Below, piece after piece: positions 4,958-16,497 of a stretch of 16,836 nt of DNA. Both the position numbers and the translations under genes were made by a program. Where the stretch lies: positions 21,424 through 38,259 of the forward strand of contig JBBSVV010000041.1 of NCBI GenBank assembly GCA_038046625.1. The letters are read 5' to 3'. The notes below the pieces were generated by a model. It saw only the letters and a program-made list of their open reading frames with translations, was not told where the DNA came from and did no database searches. How positions within the stretch are numbered: the stretch's first letter is position 1; the number at the start of each line of letters is the position of its first letter. Source of the stretch: an archaeon (GTDB lineage Archaea; Iainarchaeota; Iainarchaeia; Iainarchaeales; Iainarchaeaceae).

Positions 4958-5269
4958 TCACTTCTTTTTCCCGAGCGCCTTCTTCGCTTCCTTGTCAAGG
5001 GCATCAAGCGCTTCCTTCAGCGCCTTTTCCGCGTCCCACTCCATGAACGAAGAATGCAGGCCCACTCCCTGTGCAACGGCTTTGGCGTGAACCTCAATCT
5101 GTTCGCGTTTGCCCTGTCCGTGGGTCCCCTTGAAGTGAATCTCCAGGGCAAGCCCCTCAGGCAGGATTGCCGCGAGCCTGTCATAACGCTTCTCAATCAA
5201 ATTCATCAATGCCAGCTTTTCAATGCCGCCCTTTTCAGGCATATTCGAAACCCTGATGTTCCTCTCCAC
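4958..5269 (-). CDS. HPF/RaiA-like ribosome-associated protein (103 aa, GTG start)
   Basis: GAGGTGG RBS precedes GTG at 5269. The pattern LEIHFK...IEVHAKA...LHSSFMEWDAEKALKEALDALDKEAKK fits the HPF/RaiA fold and size. Confidence 0.62.
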   Translation of the reverse strand: MERNIRVSNMPEKGGIEKLALMNLIEKRYDRLAAILPEGLALEIHFKGTHGQGKREQIEVHAKAVAQGVGLHSSFMEWDAEKALKEALDALDKEAKKALGKKK

Positions 5270-5390
5270 ACAACCACCTCGCTCCGTTAAAGTAATCGGC
5301 TTTCCGGATTTAAACTGCTTGCTGTTCGTTACCACAGACCAGTGACTGTGCGCTAAAATAGTTTTAGGAAAAAAGAAAGAGTTTTCCCGC

Positions 5391-5627
5391 TTAATCCTTG
5401 ATTTTTTTAATGCTGATTACCGCGGCGGGACAGACCTCGACAGCCTGGTTTGCAAGCTCGTCAGAATCAATCTCCAGTTCAAAAATTCCGGGGCTGACTT
5501 CCCTGCCGCCAATGAGTTCGGCCTTGCCGTTATCAGGGTTAATCCTGAAATGCTCCGAATCAACCGCAGCGCAGGGGCCTGCAGCAACGCAATTGTTCTT
5601 ATCATAAATAATCTTGAACCGAGCCAA
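5391..5627 (-). CDS. Single-cluster ferredoxin, probably [3Fe-4S]
   Basis: C13-V-A-A-G-P-C19 and C66-P. TTG start with GGTGA RBS and an upstream TATA (minus-strand ATATAAAT near 5665-5672). Confidence 0.88.
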   Translation of the reverse strand: MARFKIIYDKNNCVAAGPCAAVDSEHFRINPDNGKAELIGGREVSPGIFELEIDSDELANQAVEVCPAAVISIKKIKD

Positions 5628-5687: not shown

Positions 5688-5856
5688 CAACCCAAATCAC
5701 CTGTGCGGTGATTTCCGTTGACGGAAAGTGTGGGCAACCCAATCCCCTAACGGGGATTCAGTTGACGGAAGGGCGGGCAACCCAATCCCCTAACGGGGAT
5801 TCAGTTGACGGAAGGGCGGGCAACCCAATCCCCTGCTGGGGGGTTTCCGTTGACGG
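5688..5856. repeat. Tandem array of four 43-47-bp palindromic units
   Basis: Units start at 5688, 5735, 5778 and 5821. Units 2 and 3 are identical (CAACCCAATCCCCTAACGGGGATTCAGTTGACGGAAGGGCGGG). Each unit folds as CAAC-NN-stem-loop-stem-NN-GTTG. The fourth is truncated at the hxlR stop codon. Confidence 0.92.
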
Positions 5857-6207
5857 CTAATTGACGCCCATGAGAGGATGTCGTGTGCGCTTTTCCTCAA
5901 TTGGCAGTGAGGCCTCGCCCCACTTCTCCAGCTCCGCAATGGCCTTCCTCAACGCGCTTCCTTTAGGCAAAGCCATGTATTCAATCTTCGGCTTTGGGCC
6001 AAGCACGAGGTTCTTCTGAATCAGCTTCATTGCCTCGAGCTCCTTCAGGCGCATTGAAAGAACCCTCGGAGTAAGCCCCGGAATGCTCTTCTGCAGCGCA
6101 TTGAAACCCCTTCCGGTCTGCGAGTTCACGAGTTCGCGCAATATTGAAAGATTGTACTTTTTTGCAGCGAAATTCTGGGTTTTTGAGAAGCTTTTGGGCT
6201 CTTTCAA
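5857..6207 (-). CDS. HxlR/DUF24-family winged-helix transcriptional regulator
   Basis: KYNLSILREL...GFNALQKSIPGLTPRVLSMRLKELE..KLI.K...PKIEY...KG..L...I.ELEKWG. TTG start with GGTGAG RBS. Confidence 0.87.
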   Translation of the reverse strand: MKEPKSFSKTQNFAAKKYNLSILRELVNSQTGRGFNALQKSIPGLTPRVLSMRLKELEAMKLIQKNLVLGPKPKIEYMALPKGSALRKAIAELEKWGEASLPIEEKRTRHPLMGVN

Positions 6208-6217
6208 AGAGGCTCAC

Positions 6218-6279
6218 CAACTATAAAAAACATAGTTGATATACTTTGTATACTTACTACTATTTAAATATCAACGATG
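6218..6279. promoter_or_regulatory. Divergent promoter region with overlapping inverted repeats (candidate operator)
   Basis: Perfect CAACTAT-N7-ATAGTTG (6218-6238). CATAGTTGATAT (6231-6242) and ATATCAACGATG (6268-6279) are complementary at 11 of 12 positions and flank the TATA-like TATTTAAAT. Confidence 0.55.
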
Positions 6280-6341
6280 CAATGGTACTACAAGAAATCT
6301 TTGGCTTCAAAGGTTTCACCTCTTGGTGGGGGTTAGAAAAA

Positions 6342-6473
6342 ATGGATTGGCTTGAATTTGTCGGTGAAAATAAGCAGGTTAGAGTTCCCAGGATTAAGGC
6401 CTCAAGCCTGGGTTTCGCTTACCGCAGGGCAAAAAGCCAATCCAAAACCCTTCTCGCAATGGCGAACCAATGA
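6342..6473 (+). CDS. Microprotein A (43 aa), paralogue of 9691-9852
   Basis: MDWLEFVGENKQVRVPRIKASSLGFAYRRAKSQSKTLLAMANQ. GGTGGGGG RBS-like tract upstream. Protein-level similarity to microprotein B. Confidence 0.68.
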   Translation: MDWLEFVGENKQVRVPRIKASSLGFAYRRAKSQSKTLLAMANQ

Positions 6474-6536
6474 GTCCGAGTTCGCCCTTGCCAATCTTCG
6501 CATTCTCTTAAATAACTTTTAGCGCAATAATTCCTT

Positions 6537-6797
6537 ATGCTGGAAATTCCATTCATTCAGCCGATTCTCGTTCTTTTGCTCGCGGTTCTGCTGATTTATT
6601 TTGCCCTCAAGCTTGGCAAACAACTGGTTCTGCTGCTCATCAACAGCTTCATCGGCCTCGTAATCCTCGTTATCCTGAATTTCCTGCCTTTCGCGAGCGT
6701 GGAAATCAATGTCTGGAGCATACTCATAACCGCGCTCGGCGGAATCCCGGGAATAATCCTTTTGATAATCCTGAGCCAGCTCGGAATAGCGTTCTAA
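6537..6797 (+). CDS. BofA-family (pro-sigmaK processing inhibitor-like) membrane protein
   Basis: LLINSFIGLVILVILN...INVWSILITALGGIPGIILLIIL matches the BofA-family N..G...N...IN......G.PG signature. 86 aa. Confidence 0.8.
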   Translation: MLEIPFIQPILVLLLAVLLIYFALKLGKQLVLLLINSFIGLVILVILNFLPFASVEINVWSILITALGGIPGIILLIILSQLGIAF

Positions 6798-6861
6798 CAA
6801 CAGCACACCGGCAATCAGCCCCTTCCAAAGTGAGTTAATCCAACGCGCTTTCCAATATATT

Positions 6862-7779
6862 ATGGGAGCTAATTCGTATCTCTGCATTCAGCCTCAGCGC
6901 CAGCGGGAGATAATTGCCGAACTGAAAAAACGTTCTGGTTTAACTTGGCCTAAACTGGCTGAATCGCTTAGTGTTTGCAGGAGCATGGCATTCAACTATA
7001 ATAGCGGCACTAATAGCATCCCTCTGAACAAATTTGAGAAACTCTGCAGCTTGGCAAAAGTTGAACCTGATTATTTCGGCAAATTCGAATTAAAAGAAGT
7101 GCAAAACCAACCGCACTCAATTACAGTGCCGCCTCTCGATTCCGAAGAATTGAGTGAATTTCTCGGTTTCATGGCCGGAGACGGATGCTTAACCGTGAAC
7201 TACGCAGTTGTAGTGAGTTGTGATGCAACCTCCGACAAAAGATATGTTTGGGAAGTGGTTGCTCCAAAGTTTATGCGGCTTTTCAGCCTCGCGCCAAATA
7301 TAAGAAAAATTAACCGAAACCTGCTGCAATGCAGGGTTTACTGCAAAAAACTCTTCGACTTTCTTTCAAAAGAAGCAGGTCTTCCAACAGGCCGAAAGAA
7401 AAATAAAATACGAATCCCTGAATTCATAATGCCCAACAAAACCCTAACTGCTGCTTTCCTTCGGGGTCTCTTTGACACTGACGGCGGCTTTCACAGGCAC
7501 AACCCGTTTTCCTCAAAAGTGGAATTTACAAGCTATTCTGAAAAGTTCAGGGAAGACATTGTTCAAGCCTTGATTTCGCTTGGCTTTAAACCCGTGAGCA
7601 TCAAAACACGGATTTACATAATGGCAAAGAGTGAAATCGCCAGGTTCTTTGCAACAATAAAGCCCAGCAACTTCAAGCACTGCTACAAATACGCCAAATT
7701 CCTTGAAAAAGGACAAGTGCCAAGGCACAGGGATATCGATTACAACTCTGAAGAATTTAAGAATTTTGGGTTACTATAA
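6862..7779 (+). CDS. Free-standing two-motif LAGLIDADG (DOD-type) endonuclease with N-terminal HTH
   Basis: LSEFLGFMAGDG and AAFLRGLFDTDG motifs, plus G.K...IRIPEFI. N-terminal LKKRSGLTWPKLAESLSVCRS is XRE-like HTH. No intein splicing termini. Confidence 0.9.
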   Translation: MGANSYLCIQPQRQREIIAELKKRSGLTWPKLAESLSVCRSMAFNYNSGTNSIPLNKFEKLCSLAKVEPDYFGKFELKEVQNQPHSITVPPLDSEELSEFLGFMAGDGCLTVNYAVVVSCDATSDKRYVWEVVAPKFMRLFSLAPNIRKINRNLLQCRVYCKKLFDFLSKEAGLPTGRKKNKIRIPEFIMPNKTLTAAFLRGLFDTDGGFHRHNPFSSKVEFTSYSEKFREDIVQALISLGFKPVSIKTRIYIMAKSEIARFFATIKPSNFKHCYKYAKFLEKGQVPRHRDIDYNSEEFKNFGLL

Positions 7780-7787
7780 CCTTACGT

Positions 7788-7858
7788 GCGCCTGTGGGAC
7801 AATGGTAGCCTTCGACCTTCCCAAGGTCGCGACCCGGGTTCGATTCCCGGTAGGCGCA
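7788..7858 (+). tRNA. tRNA-Gly(CCC)
   Basis: Acceptor stem GCGCCTG/TAGGCGC plus discriminator A. Anticodon arm CGACC-TTCCCAA-GGTCG. T arm CCGGG-TTCGATT-CCCGG. 71 nt, no intron, no encoded CCA, followed by TTTT. Confidence 0.96.
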
Positions 7859-8093
7859 TTTTGGCCTTTGAAAATGAGCCGAACCATGAAGGCGGGCAAT
7901 CCGCAGAAAACCAATGAAAAAATTGGCATGCTTTTTCCCAAGGTAATTTTCAATCAAAAGTTCGCCTATACGCTGATTGTCTAATAATTTGTTCCGTATT
8001 CGGATTCCGAACTGGGAAATATTTTATTCGGGAGCTCCGTTAGCTTGAACAAGGTGAACAGATCTGTATAACGCAGAATGAAACCGAAAAAGC

Positions 8094-8162
8094 GGAAACG
8101 GGCTAAGCCTGACTTGCTAACAAGTTGCCCCTTGGAATCTTTTGTGCAGAAAGCCCGTTTCC
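8094..8162. repeat. Intergenic 11-bp perfect inverted repeat enclosing a nested hairpin
   Basis: GGAAACGGGCT (8094-8104) pairs with AGCCCGTTTCC (8152-8162). Inner hairpin ACTTG-CTAA-CAAGT (8112-8125). Confidence 0.6.
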
Positions 8163-8220
8163 CTTACACTTATTTTATAACACGAATTCCACATTACCTC
8201 CTTCTCTAAGGGCAATCTTA

Positions 8221-8583
8221 ATGGAAAAACCGATTATTTCGAACGATTACTGGCAAAAAGCCTTCTCCCTGAATCCGGTTCTCGGCGAAGCAATCTCAAA
8301 CCCGAACACTGATTTCATGACCAAGCTGCTTTTCGATGCGCGCTTCTTCCAAAAGAAATTCGGCAAGGAAATAACCTACTGGAGCAGCGCGATTTTTGCA
8401 GCAAAACTCATTTTGAGTGAAAAGGGCTTCTCCGCGAAAGAACTCGCAAAAAAGGCGAAAGTGCCTGAAAAGCACATGAACGAGGTGCTTTCATACCTCA
8501 AAAACATGGCTGAAATAGAGGAAAAGAACGGAAAATTTGCCCTGAATTATGCGAGCCCGTTCTCAAAAATGTTCAAAAGCTGA
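8221..8583 (+). CDS. Hypothetical protein with C-terminal winged-helix-like domain (120 aa)
   Basis: ATG at 8221. FSAKELAKKAKVPEKHMNEVLSYLKNMAEIEEKNGKFAL has a wHTH pattern. Confidence 0.65.
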   Translation: MEKPIISNDYWQKAFSLNPVLGEAISNPNTDFMTKLLFDARFFQKKFGKEITYWSSAIFAAKLILSEKGFSAKELAKKAKVPEKHMNEVLSYLKNMAEIEEKNGKFALNYASPFSKMFKS

Positions 8584-8660
8584 AACCGGGCTTTGAAGCC
8601 GCTTCATTGTACGGGGTGAATTGAGTGCACCTTAAATAGTTTTCACTCATTCACTAAATT

Positions 8661-9215
8661 ATGCCGGGTGAACCAAAGAGGCATTCGCCGCTTGTTCAGC
8701 ATCTGGAAAAACAGGCGAGGGAACCAAATCCCCAATTTTTGGATTCGGGCATCCACAGGTTCAGGATAAGGCACTGGGGTTCGGAAAAGAGATTTGCATT
8801 CAAAAAAGGTGCCGGTGTAAGGCTCGGCAAGCAACTGAACCGCGCGCTTTCACTTTACCGGCAGGCCGAGGAAAAAGGGTTGGCGAATAGCACATACAGG
8901 GCTCACGTGGCAAAGAGTGTCGAGCTTCTGGTTGCAGACCTGGCCCAGCAATCCGTCATCGGTGAGATAGTCGCCGCAGCCAAGCAAAGGGCGGTTTTTC
9001 AGCAAGAAACCGCAAAATTTGACCAAAATAAAATCGATTCGGCTGAAAGCCAGAGGCTTTGGGACAATGTTTTGGGCGAAGCCGAAAAGAAAAGGTTCTG
9101 GGAAGAAAAATATGTTGAATTTTTGAGCGGCCTCGTGAAAAGAGGTTCGATTCCGGATTCATTGGAGCAGGAGATTCTGCGCCTCATTCAGGGAAGAATA
9201 ATCCCTGAACCCTAA
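8661..9215 (+). CDS. Hypothetical protein (184 aa, helical, charged)
   Basis: Long ORF filling the gap, with TATA-like CTTAAATA about 25 nt upstream. It ends 1 nt from the convergent thioredoxin stop. Confidence 0.62.
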   Translation: MPGEPKRHSPLVQHLEKQAREPNPQFLDSGIHRFRIRHWGSEKRFAFKKGAGVRLGKQLNRALSLYRQAEEKGLANSTYRAHVAKSVELLVADLAQQSVIGEIVAAAKQRAVFQQETAKFDQNKIDSAESQRLWDNVLGEAEKKRFWEEKYVEFLSGLVKRGSIPDSLEQEILRLIQGRIIPEP

Positions 9216-9216
9216 A

Positions 9217-9549
9217 TCATTTTATTCCGTTCTTTTCCAGCCATTCCTTAATCATGTCCTCGGACCAGGCGCCGACGAATTCATCAACGATTTCTCCGCC
9301 CTTGAACAGCTTTACCGCAGGAATGCTCATTATCCCGTATTCAGCACCGAGCTTCTGGTTGGCATCAACATCAACTTTTGCGAGAACAAATTTTCCGTTA
9401 TAATTCTTTGCCATCCTCTCAAGAACAGGCCCCAAGAGGCGGCAAGGCCCGCACCAAACCGCCCAAAAATCAACAACTATGGGGGTTTTCTTCGATTTTT
9501 CAATTACTTCCTTCCGGAAATTCGAGTCAGTTGCGACAACTTCAGTCAA
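9217..9549 (-). CDS. trxA: Thioredoxin
   Basis: VDFWAVWCGPC active site, KVDVD, cis-Pro SIP, FKGG. TTG start. Confidence 0.95.
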   Translation of the reverse strand: MTEVVATDSNFRKEVIEKSKKTPIVVDFWAVWCGPCRLLGPVLERMAKNYNGKFVLAKVDVDANQKLGAEYGIMSIPAVKLFKGGEIVDEFVGAWSEDMIKEWLEKNGIK

Positions 9550-9621
9550 AATACACGCCCCCCATCAAAAAAGCTTAGACAATTATTGCGGGGCGCAGTG
9601 TTTTAAACCGTAACGGCGCCG

Positions 9622-9665
9622 CGGCAAAAAAAATAAAATACCCAAAGAAGCCCTCTTTTTTGCCG
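9622..9665. terminator. Inverted repeat between microprotein B and trxA (terminator-like)
   Basis: CGGCAAAAAA (9622-9631) pairs with TTTTTTGCCG (9656-9665). The minus strand contains a T8 tract. Function is inferred from position only. Confidence 0.35.
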
Positions 9666-9690
9666 TGTAACGAAGCTTTTCTTTGCGGCT

Positions 9691-9852
9691 TCATGCTGTT
9701 GTTTTTTTGAATCCCGCGAATCTCGCGTTCTGCTTCACGAACTCTTTTGCGGCAAGGTTCAGCCTCCTGAGCCTCACAATGGCAGAGCTGACCTTTATGC
9801 GCGGAACATGCAAAGGATTCGGCGTTCCCGAAACAAATTTTCTCCAATTCAT
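9691..9852 (-). CDS. Microprotein B (53 aa), paralogue of 6342-6473; absent from the ORF track
   Basis: MNWRKFVSGTPNPLHVPRIKVSSAIVRLRRLNLAAKEFVKQNARFAGFKKTTA. GGGTGG RBS-like tract and BRE/TATA-like AAAAGCAAATATTTAAG upstream. Confidence 0.7.
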   Translation of the reverse strand: MNWRKFVSGTPNPLHVPRIKVSSAIVRLRRLNLAAKEFVKQNARFAGFKKTTA

Positions 9853-10047
9853 GCTAACCACCCGAATTTATCAGGGATTCCCAGCACTTAAATATTTGCT
9901 TTTTTCGGCGATAAGCGAAAAAATATTCGTTTTTGTCGTGAAAATTCTTGTCCTGCCCGAGAACAGGAAGCCCGTGAGGCGCCGAAGTTTTCCGTGCTTT
10001 CGGGGTACAATTAAAACCGCTTCGCACTAAGTTCTGCTTTGGTTTGC

Positions 10048-10857
10048 ATGGATGCGCAATCAACATTGAAACTGAACAGTGGTGGCAAGATTCCTGTTCT
10101 GGGTTTCGGCACTTGGGAGCTTCGAGGCAAAGCATGCGAGAATGCAGTGAGAGCCGCAATTGAAGCCGGCTACAGGCTTATTGATACCGCTTCATTCTAC
10201 GGGAACGAAAAAGAGGTTGGCGATGCAATCGCGCAAAGCAAGGTTCCGCGTCGGGAATTGTTCATAACCACAAAGCTCTGGCCCTCCGATTTCGGCAGCG
10301 AGGAAAAGGCGCTTGAAAAGAGCCTCTCGCTTCTGCAGCTGGATTATGTCGACCTTTACCTCATTCACTGGCCGCGCAAAGGGCGCACAAATTCCTGGAC
10401 AAAATTGGCGGGAATTGCCGAATCCGGAAAAGCAAAGAGCATCGGCGTAAGCAATTTCACTATAATGCATTTGGAGGAGCTGGCAAAGGTTTCCGAAACG
10501 GTTCCGAGTGTGAACCAGGTGGAGTTCTCGCCCTTCCTTTATCAAAAGGGGCTGCTTGATTATTGCCAAAAAAAAGGGATCGCTGTCGAGGCTTATTCTC
10601 CTTTGACGCGGGGAAGGAAGCTGGACGACAAAAGGATTTCGGATATTGCGCGGAAGCATTCAAAGTCAAATGTGCAGGTAATGCTCCGTTGGCTGATTCA
10701 GCACGGCCTGGTTCCGCTCCCCAAATCTTCGCACGAAGAAAGGATTCGCGAAAACATTTCCGTTTTCGATTTTTCGTTAAGCAACGAGGAAATGAAAATC
10801 CTTGATTCCATGGATGAGGGTTTCAGGAACACTTGGAACCCGGAGCAGATGGAATAA
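10048..10857 (+). CDS. Aldo/keto reductase (2,5-diketo-D-gluconate reductase-like)
   Basis: LGFGTW; catalytic tetrad in IDTA, FYGNE, ITTK and LIHWP; IGVSNF, NQVE, AYSPL, LPKS. ATG at 10048. Confidence 0.93.
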   Translation: MDAQSTLKLNSGGKIPVLGFGTWELRGKACENAVRAAIEAGYRLIDTASFYGNEKEVGDAIAQSKVPRRELFITTKLWPSDFGSEEKALEKSLSLLQLDYVDLYLIHWPRKGRTNSWTKLAGIAESGKAKSIGVSNFTIMHLEELAKVSETVPSVNQVEFSPFLYQKGLLDYCQKKGIAVEAYSPLTRGRKLDDKRISDIARKHSKSNVQVMLRWLIQHGLVPLPKSSHEERIRENISVFDFSLSNEEMKILDSMDEGFRNTWNPEQME

Positions 10858-12839: not shown

Positions 12840-12978
12840 TATAGCAGACCACAAAAGTTTTTCGGCATTTATGGTGGTCTGCTAGATAGCACCTGGTGCC
12901 CAATGGGTACTAGGCCTCGTCCCCGTAGGGGGCAAGGAACCATGAAAATCCACCGAATTACTTTATCGGTTTGCTATA
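12840..12978. mobile_element. Twin-hairpin MITE-like repeat, copy A (139 bp including a 46-bp internal insertion)
   Basis: Termini TATAGCAGACC...GGTTTGCTATA. The first 52 nt match copy B (16406-16457) at 49 positions. It overlaps the last codons of pgk. The repeat itself is directly visible; mobility is inferred. Confidence 0.65.
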
Positions 12979-14196
12979 ATTCTTTTCAAGTATTTCAAGC
13001 CCCGGCAATGGTTCCCCTGAAAGGAACTGCAGGAGCGCTTTTCCCGCGAGTGAAACGAAACTAAAGTCCTGCGCAACCAAACCAAAAGAAGTCAAAGCCT
13101 TTTCCGTGTCACCGCCTCCGATGATTGAGTAACAACGATGGAATGCGATTGCTTCCAAAACTTTTTTGGTGCCTACTGCAAAGGCCTTCTTTTCATACAC
13201 CCCCATGGGGCCATTGAAAACAACAACACTGGCGCCCCTAATATGCTCTTTGAAGAGTTCGCTTGTTTCCCTTCCAATGTCCATTGTGTCGAATTTTGAC
13301 GGCAATTCTTTCAACTGGGCTTCTTTTCTCTTGCCGCTATCCCTGGGTTCCTCAATCCCGAAGTCTTTTGCAAGGATAAGTTTTGCGCTGTGCTTTTTGA
13401 GTATTTCCCTTGCCTTGGGCAAGAGCTTGTCAAAGCCCTTTTCCCTGAAGAATTTTTCCTTTGCCCCGAAATCAACGCCCTGCGCCTTCAAAAAAAGTTC
13501 CCCGAACAGGCCTCCAACACATGCCTTGTTGCACAAATTGTTATCCAGCATGCCCTCAAGTAGCGATACCGAATCCGATAATTTTGCCCCGCCCAAAACA
13601 ACGAGCCTGTTTCCGCTGCCCTTGCCGTTCAGTTTATCGAGTGCCTCGAGTTCCCTCTGCAATTGGGGGCCCACCACACAAGGCATGTATTTTTTGAACC
13701 CAACAACTGATGAGTGCGGCCTGTGGCAAACGCTTAGGGCATCCTGCACGAACAGGTCTCCGAGTGGCCCGAGCTTTTTTATTACGGGGTCGTTCGCGTG
13801 CTCTTCCGGTGTTTTATCTTCCTGCTCTTCCTTTATGAAGCGAGTGTTGTCCAAAACAACAATGTCGCCGTTCTCCATGTTTTTTATTTCCGAAACATAA
13901 TCCGCTTCCCACTTCACGAACTTAACAGGCCTGTCAACGAACTTTTTTATGAAATCCGCGTGCCTCTTGAGTTCGATGAATTCCTCTTCGCCCGGCCTGC
14001 CCTGGTGCGAGAGCACAACAACTTTTGCTCCCTCCTCACTCAAAGCATAAATGGTTTTCGAGTGCTCGCGCAGCCTCGAAGAAATTACAACCCTGCCTTC
14101 AACAACGGAGCTGTTCAAATCGGCCCTCAGGAAAACCGTTTTTCCCTTCAAGGGGTAATCGAAAACATTTTTGTATTCCACTTTTGCCCACCGCAT
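12958..14196 (-). CDS. pgk: Phosphoglycerate kinase (archaeal type)
   Basis: RADLNS, SHQGRPG, DNTRF, HR, LGGAKLSD, DIG, NGPMGVYE, GGGDT, LPGLE. An alternative GTG start lies at 14181. Confidence 0.95.
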   Translation of the reverse strand: MRWAKVEYKNVFDYPLKGKTVFLRADLNSSVVEGRVVISSRLREHSKTIYALSEEGAKVVVLSHQGRPGEEEFIELKRHADFIKKFVDRPVKFVKWEADYVSEIKNMENGDIVVLDNTRFIKEEQEDKTPEEHANDPVIKKLGPLGDLFVQDALSVCHRPHSSVVGFKKYMPCVVGPQLQRELEALDKLNGKGSGNRLVVLGGAKLSDSVSLLEGMLDNNLCNKACVGGLFGELFLKAQGVDFGAKEKFFREKGFDKLLPKAREILKKHSAKLILAKDFGIEEPRDSGKRKEAQLKELPSKFDTMDIGRETSELFKEHIRGASVVVFNGPMGVYEKKAFAVGTKKVLEAIAFHRCYSIIGGGDTEKALTSFGLVAQDFSFVSLAGKALLQFLSGEPLPGLEILEKNYSKPIK

Positions 14197-14243: not shown

Positions 14244-15005
14244 ATGCCGTTGGTCGACCTGAAGGGGAAAATTGGCCTGCCTTTGAAACTGAACGGCTCA
14301 AAGCTCGTTTTCGGCAAAGGAATGAAGGAAACTGCAGTTGACACAAGGGTACGCGAAAGGATGCTTCCCGTGCTCAAAAACCCCTCTTCTTCCGCACCAA
14401 GCGGGTTCTATTACATGTACCGCGATGTTTGCCTTGAAAAGGATCGCGCAAAAATAAGGGCAAACAACCTGCGCTTTGACATCACAATCCTCCCCCCATT
14501 CAAGGTCGGGGACGAGTACAACAAAACTTTTGGGCATTTCCACCCAAAAGTGCAGGGTACAAACACTTGGTACCCCGAGCTTTACGAGGTAGTTCACGGC
14601 CACGCCCACTATCTATTGCAGAACGGTTCCGAATTTTTGGTTTTCGATGCGAGGCCGGGAGATAAATGTTTGATGATTCCCGGTTTTGCGCATATTACAG
14701 TGAATCCCTCGCTTTCCGAAACCCTTGTAATGGCGAACTGGGTTTACCCGGGCTTCAATTCCGATTACGCGCCGATTGAAAAAAACGGCGGCGCGGAGTG
14801 GTTCGAAACAACCCAAGGTTTTGTTCCGAACACAAAATATTCAAAAAATACGCCCGTGAAAATAATTTCTCCGCGCGAATTCAGCGAATTCGGAATCACG
14901 AAAAAGCCCATGTACCCCGAGGCAATGAAGGCGCCGAAGAAATTTGCGTGGCTTTCCAAGCCGCAGGATTTTTCTTCCAAATTTTCCAAATACCTGACGC
15001 AATAA
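14244..15005 (+). CDS. pgi: Cupin-type glucose-6-phosphate isomerase family protein
   Basis: YYMYRD, LRFDITILPP, KTFGHFH, PELYEV..G, PGFAHITVN, with cupin metal ligands H-H-E-H. Divergent from pgk across a 47-nt AT-rich spacer. Confidence 0.85.
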   Translation: MPLVDLKGKIGLPLKLNGSKLVFGKGMKETAVDTRVRERMLPVLKNPSSSAPSGFYYMYRDVCLEKDRAKIRANNLRFDITILPPFKVGDEYNKTFGHFHPKVQGTNTWYPELYEVVHGHAHYLLQNGSEFLVFDARPGDKCLMIPGFAHITVNPSLSETLVMANWVYPGFNSDYAPIEKNGGAEWFETTQGFVPNTKYSKNTPVKIISPREFSEFGITKKPMYPEAMKAPKKFAWLSKPQDFSSKFSKYLTQ

Positions 15006-15389: not shown

Positions 15390-16379
15390 TCAAATTTTCA
15401 GCTGCTTCACCAAATCAACGCAGCGCTGCGAGTATCCAAGCTCATTGTCATACCACGCAACCACTTGAACCAAATTTCCGCCGATTACTTTTGTGAGCTG
15501 CGAATCAAAAATGCTTGAGGCCTTGTTTCCGATGATGTCGCTTGAAACAAGGGGCTCGTCAGAGTATTCCAGGATTCCGCGGAGTTTTCCTTTCGAGGCC
15601 TCGTACATCGCCATGTTGATTTCCTTTACACTAGTTTCCTTTTCAAGCTCGGCCGTCACTTCAAGCAGCGAACCATCAGCCACAGGAACCCTGATTGCTT
15701 TTCCATCAATCCTTCCCTTCAAAGCAGGCATGACTTTTCCCGTTGCCTCGGAGGCTCCGCTCGTGGTTGGTATGATGTTCAGCGCCGCCGATCTCGCACG
15801 CCTCTCATCCTTGTGCGTTCCGTCAATAAGGTTCTGGTCTGCTGTGTAAGCGTGAATGGTTGTCATGAATGCCCTTTTGATTCCGAATTTTTCCTGCAGA
15901 ACCTTCATTACCGGCATTAAGCAGTTCGTTGTGCAGGAAGCATTGTCAATTATGTCCGCGCTCTTCTGCATGTTTGCCGTGTTCACGCCGAGCACGTAGC
16001 TCTCAATGTCGCCTTTTGCGGGCGCGGATATGATTACTTTTTTTGCGCCCGCTTTCAAATGCCCGCCTGCATCGTCCTTTCCGCGGAAAACGCCCGTGCT
16101 TTCAATAACCACATCAACGCCCAATTGTTTCCAGGGCAATTCTTCCGGCTTTACGCGTTGTGAAAGCACTTTCACTTTCTTTCCGTCAACAATGAGGTTG
16201 TCTCCCTGTGCCTCTATTGTTCCCACGAATTTCCCGTGCACTGAATCGTATTTGAACAAATGCAGCGCGCTGTTTATTCCGTCAGGGTGGTTGATTACCC
16301 ATTCAATGTTTTTCTCATTTATCCCGCACCTCAGAATAAGCCTTCCAATCCTTCCAAAACCGTTGATTGCAACCTTCAA
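15390..16379 (-). CDS. gap: Class I (bacterial-type) glyceraldehyde-3-phosphate dehydrogenase (329 aa)
   Basis: KVAINGFGRIGR, YDSVHG, ESTG, ASCTTNC, HAYT, NIIPTTSGA, RVP, WYDNE. TTG start at 16379 with GGAGGGG RBS (16386-16392). Confidence 0.96.
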   Translation of the reverse strand: MKVAINGFGRIGRLILRCGINEKNIEWVINHPDGINSALHLFKYDSVHGKFVGTIEAQGDNLIVDGKKVKVLSQRVKPEELPWKQLGVDVVIESTGVFRGKDDAGGHLKAGAKKVIISAPAKGDIESYVLGVNTANMQKSADIIDNASCTTNCLMPVMKVLQEKFGIKRAFMTTIHAYTADQNLIDGTHKDERRARSAALNIIPTTSGASEATGKVMPALKGRIDGKAIRVPVADGSLLEVTAELEKETSVKEINMAMYEASKGKLRGILEYSDEPLVSSDIIGNKASSIFDSQLTKVIGGNLVQVVAWYDNELGYSQRCVDLVKQLKI

Positions 16380-16405
16380 GCCAAACCCCTCCAAAATGAT
16401 GAAAC

Positions 16406-16497
16406 TATAGCAAACCACGAAAGTTTTTCGGCATTTATGGTGGTTTGCTAGATAGCAGACCAAAAATGCCGCCAAAATATTTTATTGGTCTGCTATA
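16406..16497. mobile_element. Twin-hairpin MITE-like repeat, copy B (92 bp)
   Basis: TATAGCAAACCAC...GTGGTTTGCTA-GA-TAGCAGACCAA...TTGGTCTGCTATA, giving two 11-bp stems. Direct repeat of copy A, immediately upstream of the gap RBS. Mobility is inferred. Confidence 0.65.

Follow-up and report, generated by a model that had tools for sequence, protein, structure and literature searches.

Comparison with related genomes indicates that two small open reading frames (ORFs) in a 16,836-nucleotide (nt) stretch of DNA from an archaeon of the Iainarchaeaceae (assembly GCA_038046625.1, contig JBBSVV010000041.1, positions 21,424 to 38,259; here called the window) truly code for proteins and belong to a lineage-restricted family of microproteins, found in a single order of DPANN archaea and under selection at the protein level. 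The canonical copy, ORF A, lies back to back with a gene for an HxlR-like winged-helix regulator. We consider it rather probable that these two genes form a regulator-effector module, in which an effector peptide is controlled by the HxlR-like protein and, in addition, by a candidate translational gate in its leader. The microprotein would represent a new protein family, set in a gene arrangement of a familiar kind. The two ORFs are as follows.

6342 to 6473, forward strand: ORF A, ATG 6342 to TGA 6473, 43 amino acids (aa), MDWLEFV...VPRIKASSLGFAYRR...SKTLLAMANQ, the canonical member of the family
9852 to 9691, reverse strand: ORF B, ATG 9852 to TGA 9691, 53 aa, a divergent unlinked paralogue with the N-terminal module of about 25 residues only, MNWRKFVSGTPNPLHVPRIKVSS

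A first-pass annotation of the window had described the two ORFs as paralogous microproteins that align from the first methionine with one gap and 14 identities. When the sequence was read directly, the coordinates, strands and lengths given there proved correct, and the alignment was reproduced by a single BLASTP comparison (14 identities in 30 positions, one gap, from Met1 of both, E = 2e-6); MAFFT placed 15 identical residues in the same columns. The codon differences reported between the two ORFs were also present (Pro CCC/CCG, Arg AGG/CGC, Ile ATT/ATA, Ser TCA/AGC and AGC/TCT), and a TATA-like box and a ribosome-binding site were located for each. The stretch itself is contained in nine public DNA sequencing runs from three studies, six of them possibly its source, and in no listed RNA run.

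A tblastn search of the 986-kb assembly of the same genome with ORF A found ORF B at a marginal E value of 0.032, the next match being at 0.11. Since this within-genome match was only marginal, the kinship was settled with a hidden Markov model (HMM) built from 29 homologues of other genomes, from which ORF A, ORF B and one further locus (L011) had been excluded. Among the 27,312 six-frame ORFs of at least 20 aa in the genome, this model found both ORF A (E = 5.4e-17) and ORF B (E = 6.7e-9, over model positions 1-32), and no third copy of the family, the next-best match having an E value of 0.17.

A profile of the two sequences matched intact frames, from model position 1, in 18 of the 22 other genomes of the same taxonomic family. 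After iteration, 32 distinct intact genes of 31-55 aa were obtained, 22 of them 43-46 aa long, with ATG (25), TTG (6) or GTG (1) as the start codon and the consensus M[DN]WxxFVKxxxxISVPRIKASxLGYAYRKxxxxQSSTLxALxR. The entropy at the three codon positions was 1.22, 0.99 and 1.60, so that the third position was the most variable, and conserved columns switched between codon families (Ser TCN and AGY, Arg AGR and CGN, Leu CTN and TTR). The median ratio of nonsynonymous to synonymous substitutions (dN/dS) was 0.49 over the 130 usable (unsaturated) pairs of 496, as in coding-type evolution. The proposal that the two ORFs are paralogous coding genes conserved at the protein level was thus borne out by intact frames in other genomes, by the codon pattern and by the foreign-homologue HMM.

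The microprotein was found in 16 of the 22 other genomes of the window's own taxonomic family, in 38 of 196 genomes of the order (E <= 0.01) and in 37 of 215 genomes of the phylum (E <= 1e-4). The last 37 all fell in one order and represented seven taxonomic families; among the 215 phylum genomes, none outside that order had a match at this threshold.

When 1.84 billion representative proteins were searched with a profile, 18 matches at E <= 1e-3 were obtained, two of them spurious; a word-indexed search of 5.8 billion proteins gave 17 matches, called "hypothetical protein" where a name was given. The public homologue records are 43-46 aa long and carry the organism names "Candidatus Diapherotrites archaeon" or "archaeon." The two spurious matches, long repeat proteins (P0019 and P0022), were rejected as relatives, their similarity being confined to reiterated ISVPKIKGE-like or VPRVSSSAIRR-like units. 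No Pfam family matched ORF A at E <= 1, and 21 members searched in the same way gave two chance matches only (Whi5, 0.0077; DUF4222, 0.12). NCBIfam gave a single nonsignificant match at 0.09, a profile search of the PDB gave none at E <= 10, and the ESM Atlas held no usable match to the microprotein, for which the "recognition" value of the protein language model was low. The literature searched on HxlR regulators in archaea and on small proteins of DPANN, Iainarchaeota and Diapherotrites reported no such gene. As judged from Pfam, NCBIfam, the PDB and this literature, the family appears to be undescribed. The earlier description of an unannotated family therefore holds for Pfam, NCBIfam and the PDB, and not for public protein collections, which carry the hypothetical proteins of 43-46 aa.

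The start codon of ORF A is indicated by its relatives. Homology begins at residue 1 of ORF A in all of them, several orthologues have a stop codon just 5' of the start, and in four relatives (G012, G004, G007, and G020) the open frame is exactly 43 aa and begins at the same ATG. By these comparisons, ATG 6342 is the true start, and the public 75-aa form with a TTG start (P0008) is over-extended. The statement that ORF calling had missed ORF B and given ORF A a longer start was right as to ORF A, of which the long form is public; the 53-aa ORF B is public too (P0011).

The genes that flank ORF A are given below.

5857 to 6207, reverse strand: HxlR-like winged-helix regulator gene (116 aa; PF01638, E = 3.2e-15), divergent from ORF A
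5391 to 5627, reverse strand: small 4Fe-4S ferredoxin gene (PF13459, E = 2.4e-10), downstream of hxlR
4958 to 5335, reverse strand: stand-alone HPF/RaiA-like (S30AE) gene, last in the row on the hxlR side
6537 to 6797, forward strand: gene for a small membrane protein of the BofA family (PF07441, E = 4e-11), downstream of ORF A

Neighbors were counted with profiles made from the Pfam-annotated neighbors, which were used to search all frames of the loci within 1.5-kb flanks. Of the 32 distinct loci, 30, from at least seven families, had an HxlR-like gene directly upstream of and divergent from the microprotein gene; only ORF B and the second G007 copy did not. In the window's own family, the HPF/RaiA-like, ferredoxin and HxlR genes lie on one side and the microprotein and BofA-like genes on the other. 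The ferredoxin gene lies beyond hxlR in 15 of the 32 loci, the HPF-like gene is present in 11, in the window's family, and the BofA-like gene follows on the same strand at 20-157 nt in 16, all of them in that family. Outside the family, only the HxlR-microprotein pair persists, and all other neighbors change. The divergent placement of ORF A and hxlR in the first-pass annotation was therefore confirmed, as were the positions of hxlR, thioredoxin (9217-9549, reverse strand) and aldo/keto reductase (10039-10857, forward strand). However, the association with redox genes proposed there did not hold: analysis of the neighborhood revealed that the conserved neighbor is the HxlR-like regulator, not redox enzymes in general.

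The regulator gene also tended not to be found where the microprotein gene was not found. Six genomes of the own family without the microprotein were 79-91% complete. No HxlR match was found at E <= 1e-10 in G009, G013, G016 and G018, or at E <= 0.001 in G009, G018 and G022, while the positive control G006 gave 3.4e-35. In G001, the sole HxlR-like match was a 38%-identical paralogue adjoining a different small ORF. Since these genomes are only 79-91% complete, the regulator gene is better described in them as not found than as absent.

Characterized thiol-sensing regulators of the HxlR type (YodB and HypR) depend on a conserved N-terminal sensing cysteine. The HxlR-like protein of the window is free of cysteine, and no cysteine column is conserved among 16 orthologues; thiol-based redox sensing cannot therefore be assumed for this subfamily.

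The start codons of hxlR and ORF A are separated by 134 nt, which contain two palindromes and the core promoter elements of both genes.

6218 to 6238: palindrome CAACTAT-N7-ATAGTTG, a candidate operator that overlaps the TATA-like box of hxlR (6221-6231, reverse strand)
6240 to 6252: palindrome TATAC-TTT-GTATA, a candidate operator that ends about 10 nt before the TATA box of ORF A
6263 to 6270, forward strand: TATA box TTTAAATA of ORF A, conserved block TATTTAAATATCA

In most own-family loci, the block TATTTAAATATCA is equally far from the start codon, and 24 of the 30 linked intergenic regions contain TTTAAA. From the usual spacing between TATA box and transcript start in archaea, the ORF A transcript would begin near 6293-6297 with a leader of about 45-50 nt. 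The TATAC-N3-GTATA site is unique in the 986-kb genome. CAACTAT-N7-ATAGTTG is likewise unique with such flanks, and the genome holds two unrelated ACTAT-N-ATAGT matches besides.

When the 30 linked intergenic regions were compared with 200 Markov resamplings, the half-site ACTATA/TATAGT was present in 27 regions versus a null mean of 6.0 (maximum, 12), AGTATAC/GTATACT in 15 versus 0.7 (maximum, 4) and ACTATAC in 15 versus 1.0 (maximum, 4). Distant families contain perfect inverted repeats such as ACTATAC-ATA-GTATAGT. The microprotein gene thus has an adjacent divergent HxlR-type regulator and shares a conserved palindromic region with it, and we infer that the A[CG]TATAC inverted repeats are the operator of the HxlR-like protein.

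The leader of ORF A contains a second candidate control element.

6325 to 6332, forward strand: strong Shine-Dalgarno (SD) sequence GGTGGGGG of ORF A
6314 to 6332, forward strand: leader hairpin candidate, in which TTTCACCTC (6314-6322, a copy of the 16S anti-SD sequence) can pair with GGTGGGGG

GGTGGG, mostly inside GAGGTGGGGG, is invariant in all 17 own-family leaders, and the upstream arm, GGTTTCACC(TC) or TTTCACC, is present in 13 of the 17. Since the rRNA was not assembled in the own genome, the 3' end of 16S rRNA was taken from three relatives, in which it reads ...GGATCACCTCCT; the upstream arm matches this end and so copies the anti-SD sequence. The downstream arm is a six-base SD sequence extended by G's able to pair with U's. 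Only 12% of 652 long ORFs of the own genome have GGTG at -25 to -3, so the strong SD sequence of ORF A is unusual in this genome. An Rfam search of the window gave no match except tRNA. Folding predicts the hairpin in the majority of the own-family leaders, where, on the conservation of its sequence, it is a candidate translational gate.

On the far side of ORF A, the microprotein stop codon is followed by T-runs in many loci, in one genus by a hairpin and then T-rich sequence, and TATA-like boxes lie 25-40 nt before the BofA-like start codon in many loci. In the window itself, the 63-nt spacer between ORF A and the BofA-like gene has a weak T-run only, and the two genes may be cotranscribed.

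The peptides are mostly basic and hydrophilic. Twenty-nine of the 32 members are basic, with a median isoelectric point (pI) of 10.6, and the median grand average of hydropathy (GRAVY) is -0.41; the three exceptions, all from one genus, carry an acidic C-terminal tail that makes them acidic or near neutral (pI 5.0-6.6). An AlphaFold2 model of the monomer, made with a 35-row alignment, placed helices at residues 3-9 and 35-41 with an extended middle that contains the VPRIK segment. The model would fit a peptide that folds on a partner, for which it is weak evidence. Prediction of a complex of two HxlR-like chains and the microprotein with two alignments gave a score of 0.00, which weighs neither for nor against binding.

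The identity of the HPF/RaiA-like neighbor depended in part on its start codon, which is probably near 5245. The 95-aa form scored 24.6 bits against PF02482, above the cut-off of 23.7, and the 125-aa ORF scored 23.5, just under it; five of eight orthologues matched at E <= 0.1. The AlphaFold2 model of the protein was confident (predicted local distance difference test [pLDDT], 82), and its top Foldseek matches were HPF, YfiA/protein Y and RaiA chains (4hei_A, 8uu4_w, and 4y4o_2y), with template-modeling (TM) scores of 0.53-0.70 and E values of 1.6e-3 to 6e-3. By fold and, at the cut-off, by Pfam score, the 95-aa form falls in the HPF/RaiA family. Of 196 genomes of the order, 135 have an HPF-like domain, in frames of about 105-160 aa or of about 370-570 aa, of which the long ones may be HibA-like fusions. 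Since the microprotein is found in 38 of these 196 genomes, the two proteins are not obligate partners. According to a 2026 paper, 8% of archaea, chiefly DPANN and Nitrososphaerales, have stand-alone HPF/RaiA-like proteins (PMC13324472), and work on ribosome hibernation in archaea is at present active (PMC13324472, PMC13454478, and PMC13728122). The Sri hibernation factors were considered as relatives of the microprotein and rejected; as described in PMC13454478, they are proteins of 100-500 aa and not related microproteins.

From these features, the following mechanism can be proposed. ORF A and the divergent, cysteine-free HxlR-like regulator would form a two-gene module. The regulator would bind the A[CG]TATAC inverted repeats that lie between and partly over both core promoters, and this one operator region would control the hxlR-ferredoxin-HPF/RaiA-like row and the microprotein gene together. 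In most own-family members, a second gate would be provided by the leader hairpin, which would pair the anti-SD copy with the strong invariant SD sequence. The peptide would act in trans as a small binding module of two short helices flanking the extended VPRIK segment. Its first 25 residues or so would be indispensable, since they are all that unlinked paralogues such as ORF B retain. The comparisons show a real gene under selection at the protein level, its link to HxlR and the conservation of operator-like motifs and of the leader sequence; from these we infer the protein that occupies the operator, the role of the hairpin and a mode of action of the peptide through binding. As for the partner, the regulator itself and the ribosome or RNA appear equally plausible, each well short of an even chance; the BofA-like membrane protein is clearly less so, and something else is the single likeliest of the four.

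Several observations weigh against the proposal of an HxlR-controlled effector with a translational gate. The HxlR-like protein is tied to the candidate palindromes by position and conservation only. The fold z-score of the leader was modest, -2.87 in the window and 0.35 to -2.5 in seven others; none of eight pairs in the hairpin had changed on both sides, and paired cells amounted to 87.2% versus 87.7% in shuffles, the controls pairing as well as the real leaders because both arms are nearly invariant. Four own-family leaders from one genus have no anti-SD arm, and the more distant families have short leaders without it. The monomer model was weak (pLDDT, 66.8; predicted TM score, 0.21), so that a "binding module" would be read from a poor model. 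A dN/dS of about 0.5 indicates only moderate constraint, and the microprotein gene appears dispensable because it was not found in G001, a relative of the same genus whose genome is 87% complete. ORF B and the other short copies, with their unrelated C termini, could be decaying.

Two other explanations give the peptide a definite partner. It could be the regulator's own partner, binding the HxlR-like protein as a co-repressor, an anti-repressor or a feedback element, so that the pair would be a self-contained switch. A regulator of roughly 100 aa with no obvious sensor and no conserved cysteine would suit this role, as would a pair inherited as a unit in 30 of 32 loci and at least seven families while other neighbors change, the failure to find the regulator orthologue in own-family genomes without the peptide when the positive control was found, and the poor order of the peptide when modeled alone. 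However, adjacency and shared presence are equally expected of a dedicated regulator and its single target, and the four unlinked paralogues have no second regulator gene; we regard this explanation as unlikely, though the foremost of the alternatives. Less likely again is, as a more specific form of the suggestion in the first-pass annotation, that the peptide is a basic RNA- or ribosome-binding factor made together with the HPF/RaiA-like protein, as an archaeal counterpart of the gamma-proteobacterial pair of RMF and short HPF. The high pI of most members, the divergent row ending, in 11 of 32 loci, in an HPF/RaiA-like gene, whose identity has Pfam and fold support, and the single candidate operator region shared by both transcription units are consistent with it, as is the concentration of stand-alone HPF/RaiA-like proteins in DPANN and Nitrososphaerales reported in PMC13324472. 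The HPF-like domain is, however, far more widespread in the order than the peptide, G001 and G018 have an HPF-like gene without it, no HPF-like gene lies beside the pair within the 1.5-kb flanks outside the window's family, three members are acidic or near neutral, and Pfam shows no similarity to RMF or to any ribosomal protein family. In the most specific form of this explanation, the microprotein would be the RMF-like small partner of the DPANN stand-alone HPF/RaiA-like factor, sharing one HxlR-controlled operator with the HPF and ferredoxin genes, and the anti-SD mimic would delay its synthesis until ribosome silencing. We hold that form to be more doubtful still; on an equal footing with it, the peptide may be the ligand of the sensor-less HxlR protein in an archaeal switch of peptide and transcription factor.

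The microprotein is probably not a leader peptide for the next gene, since the whole peptide including its C terminus is conserved while the downstream gene varies, and T-runs and TATA-like boxes follow it in many loci. A cis-acting leader ORF, whose translation together with a downstream hairpin and T-run would control read-through into the next gene, would account for the BofA-like gene on the same strand at 20-157 nt in half of the loci, for the hairpin and T-run elements between the two genes and for the short copies that keep the N terminus only, two of which precede genes (thioredoxin in the window and, about 30 nt away, metallo-beta-lactamase in G006). We nevertheless judge it quite improbable, given that all 43 residues including the C-terminal SSTLxALxR are conserved across families with different downstream genes, that the upstream link to HxlR is far stronger than that to any downstream gene, that TATA-like boxes precede the BofA-like start codon, and that the short copy of G010 is convergent with its neighbor. 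That ORF A is not a gene at all, its similarity to ORF B being due to chance or to a conserved noncoding element, could be argued from the marginal tblastn value, the lack of a Pfam match and the low language-model "recognition" value. This is barely credible in view of the 32 intact homologous frames, the third codon position as the most variable one, the codon-family switches of Ser, Arg and Leu and the HMM matches to both ORFs.

The HxlR-controlled effector module can be compared with known systems. Regulators of the HxlR family with divergent targets include HxlR of Bacillus subtilis, which is divergent from hxlAB, and the thiol-based sensors YodB and HypR. As in HxlR-hxlAB, a small PF01638 winged-helix gene here lies back to back with its presumed target, with palindromes in the shared region. 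Unlike in those systems, the gene presumably controlled encodes no enzyme but a 43-aa protein outside any known family, the promoters are archaeal TATA-box promoters and, in contrast to YodB and HypR, the regulator lacks cysteine, which rules out thiol-based sensing. Regulators with adjacent small-peptide genes are known from the Rgg/SHP and RRNPP systems of Firmicutes, which the pair resembles in the joint inheritance of a transcription factor gene with a divergent ORF only some dozens of codons long. Unlike in Rgg/SHP and RRNPP, the peptide is hydrophilic, its N terminus MDWxxFVK does not, by eye, resemble an export signal, and the regulator is a winged helix-turn-helix protein of roughly 100 aa without a peptide-binding repeat domain; the microprotein lacks the features of a secreted signaling propeptide of those systems.

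RMF binds the 30S subunit near the anti-SD sequence and acts with short HPF. The window's family resembles that pair in having genes for a small basic peptide and for a roughly 100-aa protein of the HPF/RaiA fold around one control region. In contrast to RMF and short HPF, the phyletic patterns of the two differ, the pair is known here from its genes, and there is no RMF sequence similarity: a Pfam model for the RMF family exists, and at E <= 1 none of the 21 members matched it. Leaders that sequester the SD sequence are found in the RNA thermometers ROSE and fourU and in the expression platforms of riboswitches. As in those, the SD sequence just upstream of the start codon can be paired, here with the anti-SD-like stretch UCACCUC, which is the same as the 16S 3' end; unlike those, the leader has no Rfam match and no covariation, and only some members of the family have the element.

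Small proteins are routinely missed or mis-started in archaeal metagenome genomes; for the 43-residue gene described here, comparative evidence by itself suffices to establish a real gene and to give its correct start, its promoter, a candidate operator and its leader. The genomes of this lineage are about 1 Mb, in which few dispensable genes would be expected to persist. The module is compact, with one regulator of roughly 100 aa, one control region of about 134 nt and one 43-aa product, and is experimentally tractable. Should the peptide work with the HPF/RaiA-like protein or else the cysteine-free regulator, archaeal ribosome hibernation or transcription control would gain a new component; even as no more than a stress-induced effector, it would give the order a new protein family in need of a name and an annotation.

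We also analyzed ORF B and the other short copies. A second, unlinked copy of the microprotein gene was present in four own-family genomes (the window, G006, G007, and G010). These copies share MNW[RK]KF[VI]xxxPxx[IVL]xVP[RK][IL], then diverge fully and end after 29-53 residues; each has kept a strong SD sequence. Over codons 2-23, pN/pS was 0.33-0.67 and pS was 0.56-0.88. With synonymous sites near saturation and pN/pS at this level, the short copies are old paralogues in which the N-terminal module has been retained. Their origin as fresh duplications of the gene start by hairpin elements, of the kind described below, was considered and rejected: the four copies have no shared flanks, there is no repeat at the start of ORF B, and synonymous sites are near saturation. 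The control elements around ORF B are the following.

9858 to 9896, reverse strand: promoter and ribosome-binding site of ORF B, with TATA-like AAATATTTAAG (about 9886-9896) and SD sequence GGGTGG (9858-9863)
9625 to 9640, reverse strand: T-run TATTTTATTTTTTTTG in the spacer that separates ORF B from thioredoxin; a TATA-like box comes after it, at 9600-9609

No TATAC-N3-GTATA or ACTAT-N-ATAGT palindrome of the HxlR type was found at ORF B. T-runs terminate archaeal transcription, and since a clear T-run and a TATA-like box stand before thioredoxin, ORF B is probably its own transcription unit. That ORF B precedes thioredoxin and is divergent from aldo/keto reductase, as the first-pass annotation stated, is correct for the window and is not conserved at the other three unlinked copies. 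Their neighbors are a convergent pirin gene in G010, a metallo-beta-lactamase/ODP-like gene 30 nt downstream in G006 and genes without a match in G007; a loose oxidative-stress theme among the neighbors of the short copies is possible.

A 21-nt inverted repeat (19 of 21 positions complementary; 9078-9098 and 9672-9692) brackets the thioredoxin gene, its right arm overlapping the stop codon of ORF B and its left arm lying inside a 184-aa ORF (8661-9215). Between aldo/keto reductase and the TATA-like box of ORF B, an inverted repeat at 9900-9926 (reverse strand), TTTTTTCG-N8-CGAAAAAA, could be an operator or a bidirectional terminator-like element. In G010 (C1; L046 3205-3946, reverse strand), the pirin gene is read as two overlapping ORFs, with the N-terminal Pirin and C-terminal cupin domains in different frames, which could reflect a frameshift or an assembly error.

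Other observations concern the surroundings of the HxlR-microprotein pair. In G001 (C19; L052 1219-1353, reverse strand), an HxlR-like gene is divergent from a cysteine-rich 44-aa ORF (CCSGGVCSVCDCCICIC), which is followed by a membrane protein ending in CxxC; this may be another pair of HxlR and small ORF. The enlarged gap between the ferredoxin gene and hxlR in the window (5692-5856) is filled by three to four tandem 43-nt hairpin units with the core AATCCCC-TAAC-GGGGATT. Pieces of 30-37 nt similar to this unit were found on at least nine other contigs of the same genome, and the units probably belong to mobile hairpin elements.

Downstream of ORF A, a 122-aa antisense ORF (6519-6887, reverse strand) spans the whole BofA-like gene and is longer than it; this ORF is probably spurious. 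Gene picking by the longest ORF mis-annotated the position of the BofA-like gene in several relatives. Further along, a LAGLIDADG-domain ORF of 305 aa (6862-7779) ends 8 nt before tRNA-Gly(CCC) (7787-7859), and a LAGLIDADG ORF is also found downstream of the module in G021 (L012). The far part of the window carries ordinary glycolytic genes, namely, those for phosphoglycerate kinase (12958-14196, reverse strand), cupin-type glucose-6-phosphate isomerase (14244-15005, forward strand) and GAPDH (15390-16475, reverse strand).

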